Of a stretch of DNA of 64,000 nucleotides, positions 11,847-17,105 are shown one piece after another. Position 1 is the first letter of the stretch. Each line of letters starts with the position of its first letter. The notes beneath the pieces were generated by a model, which was not told the DNA's origin, searched no databases, and was given only the letters and a program-made list of their open reading frames with translations. The DNA is taken from contig CAZHOS010000001.1 of the NCBI GenBank assembly GCA_964534605.1, forward strand, positions 39,198-103,197. The letters run 5' to 3'. The translations under genes were made by a program, and so were the position numbers. The stretch comes from an uncultured Candidatus Saccharibacteria bacterium (GTDB taxonomy: Bacteria > Patescibacteriota > Saccharimonadia > Saccharimonadales > VXPC01).

Positions 11847-13148
11847 CTACGAGGAAACTGCGTCTAGGATGGCGTCTGGCGCTACCCTCTGTTTCTGCTG
11901 AGTATCAAGGTTTAGAAGCTCATAACTATCCTCGCGTAGCTCGTCCTCCCCGACAAACAGCACATGCCGTGCGCCTGCCTTTGCGGCAGCATCTATCTGC
12001 TTAGATATCTTACGTCCACTGGTATCTACAGCGACCTTTAGGCCATATATGCGTAGCTGCATGAATAGCTGCTGGGCTTGCTCGTAGACATCGCCCGCCA
12101 ACACAACGTATATATCCGTGGGGTTAGGAAGGTCAGACAGCAGATCATGAGTGCGCAGGAAGTCAACAATAGTCACGTCGCCCTTACCGAATCCTGCCGT
12201 CGGTACAGGATCAGCACCAAGTGCTCCAACGAGACCATCGTAGCGACCGCCACCAAATAGCGAGCGATTATTGTCTGGGCTCGTATCAAATACCTCAAAC
12301 ACAATCCCGGTGTAGTAAGCAAATCCTCTGACTATTGACGCGTCGAATCTAACGTTTTCTAGGCCGCTAGACTCAACCATCTGACTAAACTCCAAAAGAT
12401 CACGGTATCCTTTTGTCTGCAAGACATCTGCGTAAGCCTTTAAGTCGCTCGTATCCAGGAGTTGTATTAACTTTTGGTCTAGCCCGTTCTTTATGTTTTC
12501 TGTGCTTAGTATGTCTTTTAGCGCCTTAGCTGCGTCATCGGCAGATTTATACTTTTTGTATCTGTCTATGTACCCAAAAATATCATTAACTAGCGTCTCG
12601 TCTACACCCAAGTAGTCCAGGAGGTCTTCCATAAATGCCCGGCTGCCATAGCGCACTTCATACATATCTCTCGAAGCACCAAAACCCTCCATTATCTGCG
12701 AGGCAATCATCACCAGCTCGTGCTCAGCCTCCATACCCTCTACGCCAAATATGTCGACATTCAGCTGCCAGTGCTCTCGCAAGCGGCCCTTCTGAGGGCG
12801 CTCGTAACGCCATAGATTCGGTATGCTAAATAGACGTAGTGGGTAGGCTAATTCTTGGCGCTTGGCGGCAACCATGCGGCTCACGCTCGGGGTCATCTCG
12901 GGCCGTACGGCTACTTCCCTGCCTCCTCTGTCTGTAAAGCTGTAGACTTGCTCGTTAACTATCTCGCTAGATTCTTGGTTCTTTAAGCGGTAAAGATCTA
13001 GCGACTCAATCATCGGTGCATCGTATTCTTGGTAGCCAAAGCTTGCGCAAGCGCTGCGCCAAACTCCAAAGATATAATCCTGCAGTCGCTTGTCCTCGGG
13101 ATAGAAATCCCGAGTTCCTTTGTATGGTTGTATGCTTACTTTACCCAT
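11847..13148 (-). CDS. hisS: histidine--tRNA ligase
   Basis: MGKVSIQPYKGTRDFYPEDKR... class II aaRS motifs typical of HisRS; 433 aa. Confidence 0.9.
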   Translation of the reverse strand: MGKVSIQPYKGTRDFYPEDKRLQDYIFGVWRSACASFGYQEYDAPMIESLDLYRLKNQESSEIVNEQVYSFTDRGGREVAVRPEMTPSVSRMVAAKRQELAYPLRLFSIPNLWRYERPQKGRLREHWQLNVDIFGVEGMEAEHELVMIASQIMEGFGASRDMYEVRYGSRAFMEDLLDYLGVDETLVNDIFGYIDRYKKYKSADDAAKALKDILSTENIKNGLDQKLIQLLDTSDLKAYADVLQTKGYRDLLEFSQMVESSGLENVRFDASIVRGFAYYTGIVFEVFDTSPDNNRSLFGGGRYDGLVGALGADPVPTAGFGKGDVTIVDFLRTHDLLSDLPNPTDIYVVLAGDVYEQAQQLFMQLRIYGLKVAVDTSGRKISKQIDAAAKAGARHVLFVGEDELREDSYELLNLDTQQKQRVAPDAILDAVSS

Positions 13149-13365: not shown

Positions 13366-14586
13366 TTAGTTTCTTGCGGCATTGATACCGGCTATATAGC
13401 CTGTTGTCCAGCATAGCTGGAGCGAGTAGCCACCGGATGGTCTGTTGATATTAAGAAGGTCGCCTGTAACGTAAAGGTTGGTGATTTCCTTAGACCTCAT
13501 AGTTTTCGTGTCCAGATTCTCTAGGGCTAAGCCACCGTCTGCAACTACGGCTTTGTCAAACCCCATCAGGCTATCGACCTGAGCAGTTGCGCCACACAAC
13601 ACATCGACAATTTTGCTACGCAATACCTTACTGAGCTCGCTGCAGTTCTTAGCCTCGATCTCTTGTTTGCCAATAATCTGCGTAATGATTGGGCTTAGAC
13701 CGCCAGGCAAGAGCTCTTTGAGAACATTTTTGAGCATTTTTGCACGGTTAGATTCTAGCGCTTGGACTACTTTTTTGTCGACATCCTCCCTGTCTAGCTC
13801 AGGATAAAAATTAATTGCAACATGGACATCGCTAGACTCCAGTAGCTCCGCCACCCGGTAAGCATTATTGAGCACCAGTGGACCAGATACGCCGTAATGA
13901 GTAAAGAGCAGCCTCCCACGCTGTTTGAACTTCTTTTTGTTGCCTGCGCATAAAGACAGCTCCACCTCCGCAGATTTGCCCGCCACCGACGCAGGCCAGC
14001 TGTCTTTTAGCTTTAGTGGGGTAATACTGGGACTTGGCTCATCTACTGTATGCCCAAGCTCACGCAACCACTTAAATCCGTCACCCGTAGATCCGGTGTC
14101 CGGGCGGGATGTGCCACCGGTTGCCAGTATGTAGCTGTGGCCATGCACATCACCTTTCGATGTGCAGATACTGCTAATCGAACCCTGCTCTGTTTGAATG
14201 GACTCGACACGCACATCTGTAAGCACCTCTACTTTGCTGTGTGTCATGTCTTGTTCGAGCACCCTCAGAACATCCAAAGCTTTATTAGTAGTCGGAAATG
14301 CACGTTTACGATCCTCGATCTTTGTAGCTAGGCCACGAGAATTAAAATAATCTGCCGACTCTTGCATGCCAAACTGAGTGAATGCCGAGTAAAGGAACTT
14401 CTCTGACTTGCCGTAATTTTTGAGTAGCGTGCGCATGTCTTCCTCGGCATTGTAGACATTGCAACGGCCGCCGCCTGTTATGCGTAGCTTTTCGCCGAGG
14501 CGCTTGTTTTTTTCTAATAACAACACACTCGCCCCGCGGCTCGCAGCTGTAGCTGCGGCCATCATGCCACTCGCGCCACCACCCAC
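13366..14586 (-). CDS. HI0933/YhiN-family FAD-dependent oxidoreductase (aminoacetone-oxidase-like flavoprotein); N-terminus possibly frameshifted
   Basis: (M)GGGASGMMAAATAASRGASVLLLEKNKRLGEKLRITGGGRCNV is the HI0933 family signature. The ORF starts at a GTG directly on the GxGxxG motif, and an upstream ATG-ATG-TAG run in another frame reads DVVVV (see findings). Confidence 0.7.
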   Translation of the reverse strand: MGGGASGMMAAATAASRGASVLLLEKNKRLGEKLRITGGGRCNVYNAEEDMRTLLKNYGKSEKFLYSAFTQFGMQESADYFNSRGLATKIEDRKRAFPTTNKALDVLRVLEQDMTHSKVEVLTDVRVESIQTEQGSISSICTSKGDVHGHSYILATGGTSRPDTGSTGDGFKWLRELGHTVDEPSPSITPLKLKDSWPASVAGKSAEVELSLCAGNKKKFKQRGRLLFTHYGVSGPLVLNNAYRVAELLESSDVHVAINFYPELDREDVDKKVVQALESNRAKMLKNVLKELLPGGLSPIITQIIGKQEIEAKNCSELSKVLRSKIVDVLCGATAQVDSLMGFDKAVVADGGLALENLDTKTMRSKEITNLYVTGDLLNINRPSGGYSLQLCWTTGYIAGINAARN

Positions 14587-14673
14587 ACCACAACTACATC
14601 ATACTTATTCACCGCTATAGTCTACATCAATCAAATAGTACAATGTAGGAATATAGCGGAGCTATAATTTTTA

Positions 14674-15090
14674 CTAAAAATCATACTTTGAGTGGCATAC
14701 TGCGTGCCTCGGTATATCCTCACACTCTAAGCTAAAAGTTAATAGATATGAAGTTAAGGTGATTAACAGTAGGCTTGGTAAAAAATAGAGTCCTATCTTC
14801 CAAAATTTGTCTACCTTAAAACGCCCTAGATAAATTATTTTTGTAATAAGCAGACCAAGAAAGAATGGAATAAAATAAACCAGTGCAACTATAAAGTATT
14901 CAACCGTAAATATGTATGGGTCGCGTAGATACGTACTTACATCAGTCTCTATAATCGATGCACACTGCCTATCGAACTCAAAGCAGTAAGGTTCTGGAAG
15001 CAGCAACCAAAATGTTCCAGTAGCAAAGAATAGACAAAATATAAAAGCAATAACGTATTGCTTGAAAGTAAAGGTTTTGAATATCCCCAT
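14674..15090 (-). CDS. hypothetical small membrane protein encoded in an AT-rich segment
   Basis: 138 aa, very hydrophobic, with Phe/Ile/Tyr/Lys-rich codon usage and much lower GC than the flanking genes. Sits next to the tRNA-Leu locus. Confidence 0.45.
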   Translation of the reverse strand: MGIFKTFTFKQYVIAFIFCLFFATGTFWLLLPEPYCFEFDRQCASIIETDVSTYLRDPYIFTVEYFIVALVYFIPFFLGLLITKIIYLGRFKVDKFWKIGLYFLPSLLLITLTSYLLTFSLECEDIPRHAVCHSKYDF

Positions 15091-15131
15091 TAGCTGCTAA
15101 GTATAGCATCTGGACATACTTAACCGATAAA

Positions 15132-15163
15132 ACCAAAATAAAGAGTCCCAAATGGGACTCTTT
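15132..15163. terminator. palindromic hairpin flanked by A/T runs (bidirectional terminator-like)
   Basis: AAAATAAAGAGTCCC-AAAT-GGGACTCTTTATTTT: perfect 10-bp stem with A-run and T-run flanks, immediately 3' of the tRNA fragment. Confidence 0.5.
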
Positions 15164-15167
15164 ATTT

Positions 15168-15288
15168 TGGTGCCGTGGAAAGGACTTGCCCACGTCCCGC
15201 GGGCCCGAAACTTCGTCTTTGCAAACAAGTTTGCAAGAGAAGGTTTCCTTGCGATATGCCACTGGCATATCTCACCTTCACGCATTAT
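15168..15288 (-). other. partial duplicate of the tRNA-Leu 3' third (variable-arm end, T-arm, acceptor 3' strand, CCA) interrupted by an 85-nt structured insert
   Basis: Minus strand reads AATGCGTGAAGGT-[GAGATATGCCAGTGGCATATCGCAAGGAAACCTTCTCTTGCAAACTTGTTTGCAAAGACGAAGTTTCGGGCCCGCGGGACGTGGG]-CAAGTCCTTTCCACGGCACCA. Outside the insert it is identical to the 3' part of tRNA-Leu at 15348..15432. No 5' half (acceptor 5', D-arm, anticodon arm) is present. Confidence 0.6.
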
Positions 15289-15317
15289 GGCTCGGTTCAA
15301 CCCCTTTCCTAGTCAAA

Positions 15318-15347
15318 ATAAAAAGCCCCATATGGGGCTATTTATTT
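15318..15347 (-). terminator. rho-independent terminator immediately 3' of tRNA-Leu
   Basis: Minus strand AAATAAATAGCCCCATATGGGGCTTTTTATTTTG; GCCCCA-TAT-GGGGC stem followed by a T-run. Confidence 0.5.
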
Positions 15348-15432
15348 TGGTGCCGTGGAAAGGACTTGAACCTTCACGCATTGCTGCACTAGTTCCTAAG
15401 ACTAGCGTGTCTACCAATTCCACCACCACGGC
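15348..15432 (-). tRNA. tRNA-Leu (anticodon UAG), CCA encoded
   Basis: Minus strand GCCGTGGTGGTGGAATTGGTAGACACGCTAGTCTTAGGAACTAGTGCAGCAATGCGTGAAGGTTCAAGTCCTTTCCACGGCACCA (85 nt). Has 7-bp acceptor stem GCCGTGG/CCACGGC, D-stem GTG/CAC and anticodon stem CTAGT/ACTAG. Anticodon loop CUUAGGA gives anticodon UAG; long variable arm; T-loop TTCAAGT. Confidence 0.9.
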
Positions 15433-15453
15433 ATGTTAGTGTTGGACCGCACT

Positions 15454-15482
15454 ATTCTACTACCGTTTAACTTGTCTCGCAA
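15454..15482 (-). promoter_or_regulatory. sigma70-like promoter for tRNA-Leu
   Basis: Minus strand TTGCGA - 17 nt - TAGAAT, ending about 20 nt upstream of the tRNA 5' end. Confidence 0.5.
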
Positions 15483-15866
15483 CTATACTATGTAGGCAAT
15501 GTATGCCACAGCCGATGTTAGCACCACACCCCAGGCAGTATCGAGTGCCACCATCTGCCAGGGCCAACCTTTAATGACGGCTTTATTTGTAAATTCATAC
15601 GTTCCATAGGCGAATAGACCTAACAGTGCCCCGCGCCTAGCGACCTCCGACGCTTGGCCTTCGACGTCTAACCCTAGTTGGGACAAATATACGACCAAGG
15701 TAACGTAGCCAACGTAGAATATCAGTGCGGCCAGACCGTCTGGCTTTTTAGCAACAAGCTGAGGGGCATACTTGACCAAAGTTGGCTTGATAACAAACGC
15801 TATTACCGGCAGGTCGATCGCTGCCATCGCTACCCCTCCAATAATTACACTAATTATATAATCCAT
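15483..15866 (-). CDS. small integral membrane protein (about 4 TM), uncharacterised family
   Basis: 127 aa, hydrophobic segments throughout, WPWQ motif. No enzymatic motif recognised. Confidence 0.5.
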   Translation of the reverse strand: MDYIISVIIGGVAMAAIDLPVIAFVIKPTLVKYAPQLVAKKPDGLAALIFYVGYVTLVVYLSQLGLDVEGQASEVARRGALLGLFAYGTYEFTNKAVIKGWPWQMVALDTAWGVVLTSAVAYIAYIV

Positions 15867-15907
15867 ATGCTTTCTATCATACCATCATTCTTGTATAATT
15901 CGATGTA

Positions 15908-16585
15908 ATGAAATTGCTTAAAAGTACAATTCCTGAAGTTAAAGTACATAAAACTAGCGATCTATGTGAGCTAGATGGGTTCGCATCTTTGCACGCTTAT
16001 GGACATATCGGTCTTTCAGGTTTTATTGAAGCTACAGACATACCCCCGCTCAATTATTTCCAGGGCCTATACTGGCAAGACGTCTCCGGAATATTTACCG
16101 GAATATCTAGCGCAAGAGCTAGATCTATAAGCGTTCAGGAATCGAGAAACGCATCTAATGCACAGCTCCACGCTCTTGCGGCTAAGGTTCACGGCTTCGT
16201 TAGATCCATGCTTGAAGCTGCAGATTCGCCTTCTGCGAACTACATGGTAAATCGACCCTTACCTATACCCAACAAACTAGAGGCAGGCGGCTATGTCGAG
16301 CCTCATGCTGATGGAATAAGCTGTCATGTATATGTTGCTAGTCTTGCTCTTCATGGAATTGGATTACCTGCAATCAGGCTTGGTGTTGATCAAAATGCCG
16401 AAAACTGGGATGAATACGAAAACGAGATGACATACCAGCAGGATCCTGGAGATCTGATGATCTATGCTTGCGACATCAGAGACGCTTCAAATGTACAAGC
16501 AACTCTAAACCACCATGAGGTAAAATTGCCCGACAATAGCCTCGGTAGGCATACACTGGTAGTTGCTGGCGCTTGTACTAGCTAG
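15908..16585 (+). CDS. hypothetical protein with 2OG-Fe(II)-oxygenase-like HxD...H...RxT motif arrangement
   Basis: 225 aa. EPHADG, then about 70 aa later NHHEV, then RHT 11 residues after that, resembling the HxD/Hx10RxS facial triad of PhyH/2OG dioxygenases. The TATAAT box lies only 8 nt upstream of the ATG, so the mRNA may be leaderless. Confidence 0.4.
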   Translation: MKLLKSTIPEVKVHKTSDLCELDGFASLHAYGHIGLSGFIEATDIPPLNYFQGLYWQDVSGIFTGISSARARSISVQESRNASNAQLHALAAKVHGFVRSMLEAADSPSANYMVNRPLPIPNKLEAGGYVEPHADGISCHVYVASLALHGIGLPAIRLGVDQNAENWDEYENEMTYQQDPGDLMIYACDIRDASNVQATLNHHEVKLPDNSLGRHTLVVAGACTS

Positions 16586-17105
16586 CCTTGAGGATGCTAA
16601 TTGTCGCACGGGCGTAGGATCTTTGAGTGACAAGCCTGAGGCCATCTAGTTCTTCTGTGCGGTAATCCTTGGGGTGGCTAATCACCATCAGTCCACCAGG
16701 TGCAAGCATGCTGGCTAGTGCCCGCAGATGTAGGGGGTTCAGGTCCTGGTACGGCGGATCTGCAAAGATGAGATCAAAAGTGTAATCTACGTTCTTGGCC
16801 CAAGTAACAACGTTGGCTCGTGTGGCGCGGACGCTCTGTTTCAGACCTAGGTCCTCTATATTCTCGGTGATTGTTTTGTAGGCTTTTTTGTCCATATCGA
16901 CGGCATAGACGCTGGCGGCCCCACGACTAACTGCCTCAAAACCCAACGCTCCACTCCCGGCATAGGCATCCAGCACACTCAGGCCTTCTATGGGGCCCAG
17001 CATATTAAATAGGGCCCCCCTGGCACGCTCGCTCATTGGGTGCGTCCTATTGCCTGATGGGGCTTTAAAGATTCGGCCTTTGTGCTTTCCTGCAATCACT
17101 CTCAT
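16578..17105 (-). CDS. rsmD: 16S rRNA (guanine966-N2)-methyltransferase RsmD
   Basis: MRVIAGKHKGRIFKAPSGNRTHPMSERARGALFNML...DAYAGSGALGFEAVSRGA...FADPPY: RsmD signature including the DPPY motif. Start placed at the ATG at 17105. Confidence 0.8.
   Translation of the reverse strand: MRVIAGKHKGRIFKAPSGNRTHPMSERARGALFNMLGPIEGLSVLDAYAGSGALGFEAVSRGAASVYAVDMDKKAYKTITENIEDLGLKQSVRATRANVVTWAKNVDYTFDLIFADPPYQDLNPLHLRALASMLAPGGLMVISHPKDYRTEELDGLRLVTQRSYARATISILKAS

Follow-up and report, generated by a model that had tools for sequence, protein, structure and literature searches.

The window, that is, the whole 64-kb stretch of DNA analysed here, contains exactly one tRNA gene, tRNA-Leu(UAG), according to both ARAGORN and Rfam, and one copy of an 85-nt insert, which we call INS. 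The resident functional tRNA-Leu(UAG) copy lies at 15348..15432, where an intact 85-nt gene on the minus strand had been predicted, and its coordinates and sequence were verified. Downstream of it lie an antisense piece of the same gene and a partial second copy that is split by INS. The features of the locus, in the direction of transcription of the tRNA, are as follows.

15454..15482, minus strand: sigma-70-like tRNA promoter (TTGCGA, 17-nt spacer, TAGAAT), from the consensus scan only
15348..15432, minus strand: intact tRNA-Leu(UAG) gene with encoded CCA (ARAGORN; Rfam RF00005, 58.2 bits)
15314..15347, minus strand: terminator 1, consisting of an A-run, an AGCCCC/GGGGCT stem and a T-run (inverted repeat I4; consensus scan)
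15294..15309, minus strand: rcT, the T arm copied in antisense (reverse-complement) orientation, GGAAAGGGGTTGAACC (inverted repeat I2; minimum-free-energy fold)
15274..15286, minus strand: 5' stub of 13 nt, which repeats exactly the end of the variable arm, the 5' strand of the T-stem and T54 (repeat D4, 100%)
15189..15273, minus strand: INS, the conserved and structured insert of 85 nt (matched over 15177-15280 by covariance model R1 with 117.8 bits and E = 3.9e-36)
15271..15253, minus strand: helix H1 of INS
15252..15248, minus strand: GCAAG junction of INS
15247..15207, minus strand: helices H2/H3 of INS with a CUUG loop
15206..15204, minus strand: GGG of INS
15203..15189, minus strand: helix H4 of INS
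15168..15188, minus strand: 3' fragment, from C56 through the T-stem 3' strand and the acceptor 3' strand to ACCA (repeat D1)
15132..15167, minus strand: terminator 2, which copies terminator 1 apart from compensatory changes in the stem (repeats D1, I1 and I3)

The relative L082 shares the 50 nt upstream of the tRNA without a single difference, and terminator 1 stands directly 3' of the gene. The partial copy begins 61 nt downstream of the intact tRNA; its 5' stub (AATGCGTGAAGGT, 15286..15274) matches the tRNA at 13/13 positions, and its 3' fragment (CAAGTCCTTTCCACGGCACCA, 15188..15168) is identical to it. At the junction, the single T-loop base T55 is missing and 85 nt stand in its place, exactly as the original prediction had described in coordinates and sequence. 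The 3' repeat extends through the terminator (55 nt, 91% identity, repeat D1), with its mismatches lying in the terminator stem and being compensatory (AGCCCC/GGGGCT versus GAGTCCCA/TGGGACTC). Terminator 2, which is absent from the consensus-scan list, was recognized by its perfect 19-nt inverted repeat between an A-run and a T-run. In the minimum-free-energy fold of the window unit, the 12 nt at the 5' end of rcT pair with CAAGTCCTTTCC (helix P1), and its ACC pairs with the GGT immediately 5' of the insert (helix P2). The inverted repeat I2 and our own pairing count showed rcT to be complementary to 15/16 positions of the intact T arm as well. The identical tRNA-spacer-copy-insert junction was found in Logan contig L001 (run SRR7595306), which possibly derives from the same sample as the window assembly; an assembly artefact is disfavoured because homologous arrangements occur in the relatives L002 and L082.

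The 5' half of a second tRNA was not found, and in silico removal of INS gave no tRNA with ARAGORN. The sole call in the region, by ARAGORN and Rfam alike, is tRNA-Leu(UAG), which agrees with the earlier view that the fragment is not a functional tRNA; neither a continuous intron-containing tRNA nor an intact second tRNA is present. INS itself has three helices of its own (H1, H2/H3 and H4), and the three hairpins named in the original prediction are real and belong to this conserved fold. In the INS alignment 96.4% of cells are paired, compared with 24-47% in slid controls, and compensatory changes occur at 23/32 pairs; the observed values were matched by 0/500 shuffles. RNAalifold independently recovered the same INS helices together with the T stem. 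The alignment holds 113 G-U/U-G against 28 A-C/C-A, and one G-U pair in H4 is retained in 56/63 sequences; therefore, INS folds on the tRNA-sense strand. The junction nucleotides UGA, GCAAG and GGG are invariant. By its fold with compensatory changes on a single strand, INS has the structural signature of a new conserved structured RNA family, whose transcription is putative, and the proposal that the insert is a genuine structured element is borne out by covariation. With its CUUG-type tetraloop, conserved bulges and junction purines, the multi-helix junction is in our judgement closer to the tertiary fold of an RNA than to a folded DNA site.

Within the 64-kb window the insert sequence is found a single time, with 0 matches expected by chance, and it has many relatives elsewhere. 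A scan of metagenome contigs with one exact pattern gave 116 stretches, most of them spaced by 70-72 nt, as true copies should be; with model R1, a first set of loci yielded 88 strong matches and a second set 41, and an nhmmer/ARAGORN census counted 126 INS copies in 107 loci. The window INS is one member of this family of small structured elements, which no catalogue lists and whose hosts are Saccharibacteria-like bacteria from the Candidate Phyla Radiation (CPR). At the gathering score of Rfam 15, the tRNA model alone matched the window and 12 family loci, and relaxing the threshold to E up to 10 over 14900-15600, or to E up to 1 on locus L118, added chance-level matches only, so that the search for relatives foreseen in the original prediction returned no Rfam family for INS. 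A blastn search of phage and plasmid collections returned no INS match, and a full-text literature search gave no description of an INS-like element. In a viral scan, a 20-base pattern hit four loci, which we read as chance matches, and a specific pattern hit two, neither of which was recognized by model R1.

The position of INS is strikingly uniform. It lies after G53-T54 of a tRNA gene fragment and before T55/C56, and the 126 copies follow G-G-T (rarely G-G-C or T-G-T), all of them in tRNA-sense orientation; the borders carry no target duplication, and the position after U54 is precise and constant. An intact tRNA stands within 160 nt of 84 copies and is co-oriented with INS in 84/84, representing 23 tRNA gene types (distinct anticodons). 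Seven tRNAs have INS on both sides, and 38/117 have none within 160 nt, in loci that were chosen for containing INS. Several copies may share a locus, as in the tandem and nested units of L095 (tandem B units, defined below) and L165, and some pseudo-tRNA fragments have INS-like variants after GG(T) in their D arm or D loop. The flanking tRNA pieces decay, and INS itself is mostly intact. Dispersed similar copies, a defined short target and a fixed orientation are what one looks for in a miniature insertion element, and INS has all three.

Two mirror-image arrangements account for the 84 copies, 58 of which are A units and 26 B units. In the A unit, which is the window type, INS lies downstream of the tRNA, and the order is tRNA, terminator, rcT, short 5' stub, INS, 3' fragment and terminator; in the B unit the order is 5' fragment, INS, short 3' stub, rcT with a new -10 box, and tRNA. 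The uninterrupted antisense T-arm copy is found in many A and B units of other tRNAs, where it often pairs with both flanks of INS, and through this pairing A and B units form the same three-way junction, circularly permuted in two ways; in L094, L148, L149 and L155, rcT is weak or missing. B units lie between the tRNA promoter and the tRNA, and hence within the tRNA primary transcript. A units lie behind a terminator and carry a -10-like hexamer in 7/32 cases. For the window unit, the search for a dedicated promoter gave only TTGACT and CATAAT with a 21-nt spacer, which is outside the normal spacing. Because A units are mostly promoterless and stand behind a terminator, transcription of the window INS copy is putative, and the fold could act as single-stranded DNA.

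Comparison between loci revealed both exchange and long retention. INS copies do not cluster by tRNA type, and a Leu(UAG) copy is 94% identical to a Ser(UGA) copy; L139 and L152 carry identical INS with different 3' fragments. It seems that this likeness across tRNAs could come partly from strong purifying selection around one consensus, and not from recent movement. The window carries an A unit; in L082, a relative that is 87% identical, the same tRNA is accompanied by a B unit and the A unit is missing. In L002, the tRNA and its A unit are conserved as an inverted block with 77% identity and compensatory changes, next to a DUF2177 protein that is only 60% identical, and INS has thus been long retained at the tRNA-Leu(UAG) locus. 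These two relatives provide the comparison of the locus across genomes that had been suggested earlier. Neither a free or excised INS nor a clean pair of loci that are alike except for the presence of INS was seen. L002 was the one useful locus from a genome-collection scan with a DUF2177 alignment, which yielded mostly Alphaproteobacteria; most DUF2177 and RecG neighbourhoods examined had other gene orders, with no tRNA or INS. In L101 and L133, whole A units form direct repeats of about 200 nt around 1.7-kb cassettes, whose ORFs in L101 look like a phosphotransferase and a P-loop kinase, and further L101 cassettes end at copies of the tRNA-Lys acceptor 3' strand.

No protein family recurs beside INS. 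All-against-all clustering of the ORFs of 117 loci gave only spurious ORFs across INS and the tRNA, plus housekeeping genes, and no recombinase or transposase, including TnpA, TnpB and IscB, was found among these ORFs. In the window, the flavoprotein gene has a frameshifted 5' end and an AT-rich orphan ORF lies adjacent. Both had been noticed before and are real; no repeat or att-like sequence was found that connects them to the tRNA, and a search for a third copy of the tRNA-Leu 3' end, with which the orphan ORF would lie bracketed like an island, found none.

We propose, at about even chances of being right, that INS is a non-autonomous mobile structured element that colonizes tRNA genes by insertion-duplication. 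It is considered non-autonomous because no recurrent protein family adjoins it. The element sits between T54 and T55/C56 of a T arm, and its arrival or survival would depend on a piece of the same tRNA gene being duplicated along with it, which would always leave an intact tRNA gene at its side. A and B units may then be products of single-crossover recombination within the tRNA homology, with incoming DNA that carries an INS-interrupted tRNA piece. On the tRNA-sense strand, INS folds into its multi-helix junction, with H1, H2/H3 and H4 closed by the T stem or by rcT pairing with both flanks, and selection would keep this fold and not the flanking tRNA debris. The RNA would be carried as a leader in B units and as a read-through trailer in A units. 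We infer that the folded molecule is probably such an RNA on the tRNA transcript rather than single-stranded DNA, and we likewise infer the mobility of INS, its recombination route and whom it benefits.

Among known elements, the PATEs (miniature elements derived from IS200/IS605) and their guide-RNA scaffolds come close to INS. Like INS, they are small and present in many copies, sometimes several at one tRNA locus; PATEs also insert in an oriented manner 3' of a short motif (GGT for INS) without target duplication at the borders, and both have hairpins near the two ends and a constant scaffold with locus-specific flanks. Unlike in PATEs, the end hairpins of INS are mutually unrelated, the central irregular helix and the junctions are also under selection, and duplicated tRNA pieces with an antisense T arm always surround the element; no TnpA, TnpB or IscB gene was found nearby.

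A reading that we regard as unlikely, and yet as a serious competitor, is that INS is a host-beneficial small RNA or cis-regulatory RNA domain transcribed with individual tRNA genes. Here, rcT would switch partners, pairing either with the T-arm halves around INS or with the T arm of the adjoining tRNA precursor, and the RNA would regulate or chaperone tRNA maturation, or INS would be a binding site for a tRNA-processing protein; duplication would simply have been the way in which such genes came about. Compensatory evolution, the mostly intact state of INS between decaying flanks and the strict co-orientation with the tRNA are all consistent with this, as are the complementarity of the window rcT to nearly the whole intact T arm and the position of B units, which are necessarily inside the tRNA primary transcript. 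The A unit was also kept at tRNA-Leu(UAG) despite the low identity of the DUF2177 protein, and the fact that it has persisted since the window and L002 diverged agrees with a gene useful to the host no less than with a selfish element. However, about a third of the tRNAs have no INS nearby even in loci selected for INS, the copies are not grouped by tRNA type, A units mostly lack promoters, and no ligand or protein partner is known. Moreover, the tandem or nested units of L095 and L165 and the cassette-separated units of L101 and L133 look like repeated insertions.

It is rather improbable that INS serves as the invariable scaffold in a nucleic acid of the guide type, be it as the RNA part of a new RNA-guided recombination or nuclease system that acts in trans or as a new small ribozyme directed at tRNA T-loops. 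Under this idea, the T-arm halves, which are identical to one strand, and rcT, which is complementary, would address both T-arm strands of the cognate tRNA gene or tRNA.

We place slightly less belief still in the possibility that INS works as a recombination site made of folded single-stranded DNA, in the manner of integron attC or of the folded attP of CTX-phi. In this case, rcT, the interrupted T arm and INS would together fold into a hairpin, in the lagging-strand template or in incoming single-stranded DNA, mimicking the duplex T-arm region of a tRNA gene, and a recombinase supplied in trans would join the hairpin with tRNA genes, thereby inserting minimal units or gene cassettes. The strand-specific fold, the usual lack of promoters in A units, the single three-way junction in two permutations and the direct repeats around the L101 and L133 cassettes, together with the further L101 cassettes ending at tRNA-Lys copies, are all in its favour, and a study of CTX-phi and XerCD (PMC3442271) provides a precedent for a folded single-stranded att site. 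Integron attC and the attP(+) of CTX-phi resemble INS in having a strand-specific conserved fold, which in INS would mimic a duplex target, and in two INS loci whole units flank gene cassettes; INS differs in being conserved in sequence too and in forming a multi-helix junction, not a simple bulged hairpin. Such a junction looks more like the tertiary fold of an RNA. Furthermore, no recombinase was linked to INS among the ORFs of the 117 loci, INS lies inside the presumed crossover region and not beside it, most units have no cargo, and the direct repeats around cassettes are equally explained by plain homologous recombination.

We consider it very unlikely that INS is a catalytic or intron-like RNA, that is, a small self-cleaving or self-splicing ribozyme or a protein-spliced intervening sequence that enters T-loops and is removed from transcripts, with rcT as an external guide aligning the two "exons". 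The precise position after U54 without target duplication would suit such an element, as would the compact multi-helix junction with its invariant UGA, GCAAG and GGG, and rcT spans both flanks in a way that may be likened to an internal guide sequence on both exons. However, removal of INS followed by ARAGORN gave a tRNA spanning the splice in only about 3/70 family members, which are decayed B units, and none for the window; as the hosts are tRNA fragments, splicing would have no substrate. No ribozyme or intron model in Rfam 15 (including group I and II introns, hammerhead, twister, pistol, hatchet and HDV-like), nor that of tmRNA, matched INS above chance level, even at E up to 10. A hammerhead reading by eye of UGAGA...GCAAG...UUC was rejected, with the invariant C3 and N7 missing and helix I not adjacent to the would-be cleavage site; the sole Hammerhead_1 match (E = 5.9) lies in terminator 2 on the other strand. 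Group I introns of bacterial tRNAs sit in the anticodon loop, and their catalytic core takes up some 200 nt or more; INS, an 85-nt element in the T-loop with no tRNA on removal and no Intron_gpI match, is far smaller. To our knowledge, bacteria lack the archaeal splicing endonuclease. The intervening sequences of rRNA helices and the split or permuted tRNA genes of archaea share with INS a structured sequence at a hairpin loop and tRNA genes in pieces, respectively; in contrast, the pieces that host INS are redundant and have an intact gene next to them, taking INS out brings back no full tRNA, and the context is bacterial, with encoded CCA and intrinsic-terminator-like hairpins after the tRNA.

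The original prediction had favoured a classical integrase att scar, and past DNA rearrangement at the tRNA gene is indeed supported by the direct repeat of its 3' segment beside the intact gene (the 13-nt and 55-nt blocks). Crossovers by integrases in the T-loop are also described, for example for phage Ms6 in a tRNA-Ala gene (PMC1762012). But the repeats are separated by 61 nt without an ORF, no integrase or island lies between them, and the repeated block is itself split inside the T-loop by 85 nt, which speaks against the scar. That the locus is an isolated att scar, or a tandem duplication in decay, with a filler structured by chance is hardly credible: INS recurs with covariation in >100 independent loci and in the T-loops of 23 tRNA gene types, and this family-level evidence refutes such a scar as a complete explanation. 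Of the options raised earlier, the inserted structured RNA and the small RNA borrowing a tRNA 3' end pointed in the right direction, and the remnant att site and the decayed duplication did not. With the att duplications that integrative elements such as mycobacteriophage Ms6 (PMC1762012) leave at tRNA genes, INS loci share a partial 3' repeat beside an intact regenerated tRNA, the T-loop as the site of the event and fragment arrays that accumulate at one tRNA. They differ in that their repeats bracket only about 60 nt or the unit itself, with no integrase; that B units are mirror images, which replace the 5' part and bring a new -10 box; and that INS splits the repeated block in the T-loop, with an antisense T-arm copy present.

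The mobile structured element that we propose for INS would, if confirmed, add a new and abundant structured nucleic-acid family from the CPR, a group whose non-coding RNA content is largely unexplored. Its lifestyle is unusual, since it occupies the T-loop of duplicated tRNA pieces beside an intact copy and does so in two mirror architectures with the same junction. As the covariance model R1 now exists, complete genomes and transcriptomes can be queried for INS. The family explains "pseudo-tRNA" fragments and contig breaks beside tRNA genes in Saccharibacteria assemblies, and it points to tRNA genes as hotspots for the accumulation of small cassettes in these reduced genomes. If the guide-RNA or ribozyme reading were true, INS would represent a new RNA-based mechanism of possible biotechnological value, and tRNA genes would be dedicated landing pads for a new kind of mobile RNA element in ultra-small bacteria.

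The insert that splits the partial tRNA-Leu(UAG) copy of the window (here INS) belongs to a large and hitherto uncatalogued family of structured elements, which are dedicated to the T-loops of tRNA genes in bacteria of the Candidate Phyla Radiation (CPR). The local arrangement is as follows.

15432..15348, minus strand: intact tRNA-Leu(UAG), called by ARAGORN and Rfam
15314-15347, minus strand: terminator 1 (A-run, stem, T-run), directly after the tRNA
between terminator 1 and AATGCGTGAAGGT, minus strand: 28-nt spacer
15286..15274, minus strand: 5' piece of the partial copy, AATGCGTGAAGGT
15273..15189, minus strand: insert of 85 nt
15188..15168, minus strand: 3' piece of the partial copy, CAAGTCCTTTCCACGGCACCA
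15132-15167, minus strand: terminator 2

The original prediction had described an intact tRNA-Leu followed by a 3' copy split at the T-loop, with a single tRNA in the region, and this layout proved accurate: ARAGORN and Rfam call only this tRNA in the whole 64 kb, the identical Logan contig L001 has the same junctions, and a repeat finder recovers direct repeats of 13 nt (exact) and 55 nt (91% identity), the mismatches of the latter being compensatory and confined to the terminator stem. Exactly one T-loop base, T55, is swapped for the 85 nt. Between terminators 1 and 2 there are five differences, with the stem fully paired in each; the 42 tRNA-derived nt adjoining them are identical. This implies that either both hairpins are under selection or gene conversion was restricted to the tRNA part.

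The unit is flanked by genes for RecG, RsmD, a DUF2177 membrane protein and an HI0933-like flavoprotein. The best named relatives of RecG are Candidatus Saccharibacteria and Saccharimonadales at 47-53% identity, and L002, the closest genome locus, carries a Patescibacteria MAG label, so the window comes from a deep-branching member of the Saccharibacteria, within the CPR. The flavoprotein gene (aminoacetone-oxidase family, 13366-14586) indeed has the damaged 5' end originally proposed: at 14560-14625 (minus) about nine first codons (VNKYDVVVV) are out of frame with the rest, one base apparently missing ahead of the GGGASG dinucleotide-binding motif, either by a real frameshift or by sequencing error. 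The AT-rich membrane ORF taken as a further sign of integration is present immediately 3' of the unit (14674-15090, minus, 138 aa, orphan predicted membrane protein in a region of 39% G+C, no Pfam or NCBIfam match), but no repeat joining it to the tRNA was found. Another ORF without family match (15908-16585, plus, 225 aa) lies between DUF2177 and RsmD; these genes are direct neighbours in the relatives L082 and L083, so that the interval 15871-16593 looks like a lineage-specific insertion of ~720 bp.

Two relatives carry INS at the same tRNA gene. In L002 (60% identity in the DUF2177 protein), tRNA-Leu(UAG), terminator, stub (the short tRNA piece beside INS), 85-nt insert and 3' fragment follow in the same order; the 3' fragment fits the L002 acceptor stem, the insert hairpins show compensatory changes, and the entire block is inverted with respect to DUF2177. 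L082 (87% DNA identity) has the mirror layout, a B unit: first a complete tRNA 5' part through T54, next the insert and CAAGTCCTTTC, then a TATAAT-containing spacer of 37 nt, and last the intact tRNA, which has no unit 3' of it. Many other loci support this arrangement. Together the two relatives show that the insert is no accident. The ~190 nt following the L082 tRNA have no match in the window, and the contig end (1125-1155) is a Nextera adapter (CTGTCTCTTATACACATCTCCGAGCCCACGA), its final bases being unreliable. Other relatives' assemblies (L086, L216-L218) stop ~60-125 nt past DUF2177 or RsmD, roughly at the expected tRNA/INS repeats, which fits repeat-caused fragmentation of short-read assemblies.

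A degenerate pattern derived from the window, L002 and L082 sequences matched 116 stretches in metagenome contigs, the majority with the expected 70-72-nt span. In the filtered alignment of 63 distinct copies, which defines helices H1, long irregular H2/H3 and H4, 96.4% of cells are paired (24-47% with partners shifted by 1-3 columns), both sides are changed in 23 of the 32 pairs, and the observed values were not reached in any of 500 shuffles. RNAalifold independently found the same helices plus the T stem, and added two invariant pairs that lengthen H1 and involve T54 itself. The excess of G-U/U-G over A-C/C-A pairs (113 vs 28), together with one H4 G-U pair retained in 56 of 63 sequences, places the fold on the tRNA-sense strand, whether of RNA or of DNA. 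Conserved unpaired junction nucleotides are U54-GA ahead of H1, GCAAG between H1 and H2, and GGG ahead of H4. The H3 loop is mostly CUUG, the apparent invariance of which in the alignment is an artefact of the search pattern; copies found later have CUCG, CUAG or UAU. A covariance model scored the window INS at 117.8 bits, with no second copy in the window and ~129 strong copies across the fetched loci.

A census with nhmmer for INS and ARAGORN for tRNAs gave 126 copies at 107 loci. An intact tRNA lies within 160 nt of 84 copies, on the same strand in 84/84, upstream in 58 (A units, as in the window) and downstream in 26 (B units). The carriers comprise 23 tRNA gene types (Leu, Lys, Gln, Arg, Pro, Val, Ser, Tyr, Met, Thr, Ala); seven tRNAs have INS on both sides, and tandem B units occur. 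The flanks derived from tRNA fit the tRNA of their locus and have often decayed in part, INS itself being mostly intact. Its left border always follows G53-T54, and at the right border T55 is retained or lost. Variants share H1, GCAAG, GGG and H4 and have a different, longer central domain (GGCCGGAAGC...):

L118, 922-994: INS variant
L165, 13343-13431: INS variant
L153, 5203-5318: INS variant
L125, 2849-2956: INS variant

Some variants are inserted not in the T loop but in the D arm or D loop of a pseudo-tRNA fragment, following GG(T), and INS thus seems to belong to a modular superfamily. A further A-like unit 3' of tRNA-Gln (L165, ~12910-13110, minus) has a different ~50-nt insert at another T-loop position, after GGTTCG, which suggests that other insert families occupy the same niche. 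The T-stem/acceptor junction is a second recurrent insertion point in pseudo-tRNA pieces: exactly there, 3' fragments of L092/L145 (~25 nt past INS) and L100 have gained short palindromes (23 nt and 15 nt).

Many A units carry, just 5' of the stub, an uninterrupted reverse complement of the local T arm (rcT). It forms two helices, P1 with the T-loop and the 3' side of the T-stem and P2 with the stub, in some cases using G-U pairs. In the window, rcT GGAAAGGGGTTG (15309..15298) pairs with CAAGTCCTTTCC, and P1 is predicted to close a five-way junction in the minimum-free-energy fold of 15316..15168. Cognate pairing scored 10.7 on average vs 9.3 +/- 0.27 for permuted partners. The excess is modest, T loops being alike across all tRNAs, and some units have a weak rcT. 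B units carry rcT 3' of the 3' stub, and there P1 and P2 form with permuted connectivity. Of 16 B units, 13 have a -10-like box between INS and the intact tRNA (14-27 nt ahead of the tRNA in 10 of these), and only 7 of 32 A units have one at all; no acceptable promoter was found for the window's A unit.

Copies of INS show no grouping by tRNA type, and pairs 92-96% identical occur at different tRNAs; L139 and L152 have identical INS with different 3' fragments. The window and L082 differ in architecture at one locus, which is most simply explained by a B-tRNA-A ancestor from which units were lost differentially via direct-repeat recombination, or by two independent insertions. Incoming DNA bearing an INS-interrupted tRNA piece would, by a single crossover within tRNA homology, produce exactly the A or the B architecture. 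In L101 and L133 (7900-9900), whole A units are direct repeats around 1.7-kb intervals; that of L101 contains two ORFs resembling a phosphotransferase and a P-loop kinase, and further cassettes follow. Along the reverse strand of L101, copies of the tRNA-Lys acceptor 3' strand (TGGCCCTCCA), all with a conserved ~20-nt motif, AGTTGCAATAGCGTCYACGA, before them, enclose ORFs that resemble a phosphotransferase, a P-loop kinase, a RelB/RelE pair and a kinase. Gene cassettes pile up at tRNA 3' ends in these loci, two being enclosed by complete INS units, in what looks like an integration hotspot or cassette array.

The favoured reading, at about even odds, is that INS is a non-autonomous mobile element spreading by insertion-duplication, and that selection acts on its fold, most probably in RNA form within the tRNA transcript. 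At tRNA-Leu(UAG) the A unit has been kept since the split from L002, with compensatory changes, which counts against a purely selfish reading. Three main rivals are an RNA of the host that regulates or partners tRNA genes, a single-stranded DNA that folds into a recombination site, and a new ribozyme or intron-like RNA. No INS family exists in Rfam 15, INS was not found in phage, plasmid and viral collections, no recurrent protein accompanies it, and the searchable literature holds no description of it. A group I intron was rejected, as was a split or intron-containing tRNA, since in-silico removal of INS restores almost no tRNAs. The att-scar interpretation originally raised is likewise rejected in its classical form, the insert belonging to a large recurring family. 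The INS finding is real, and exceeds in interest what was first supposed.
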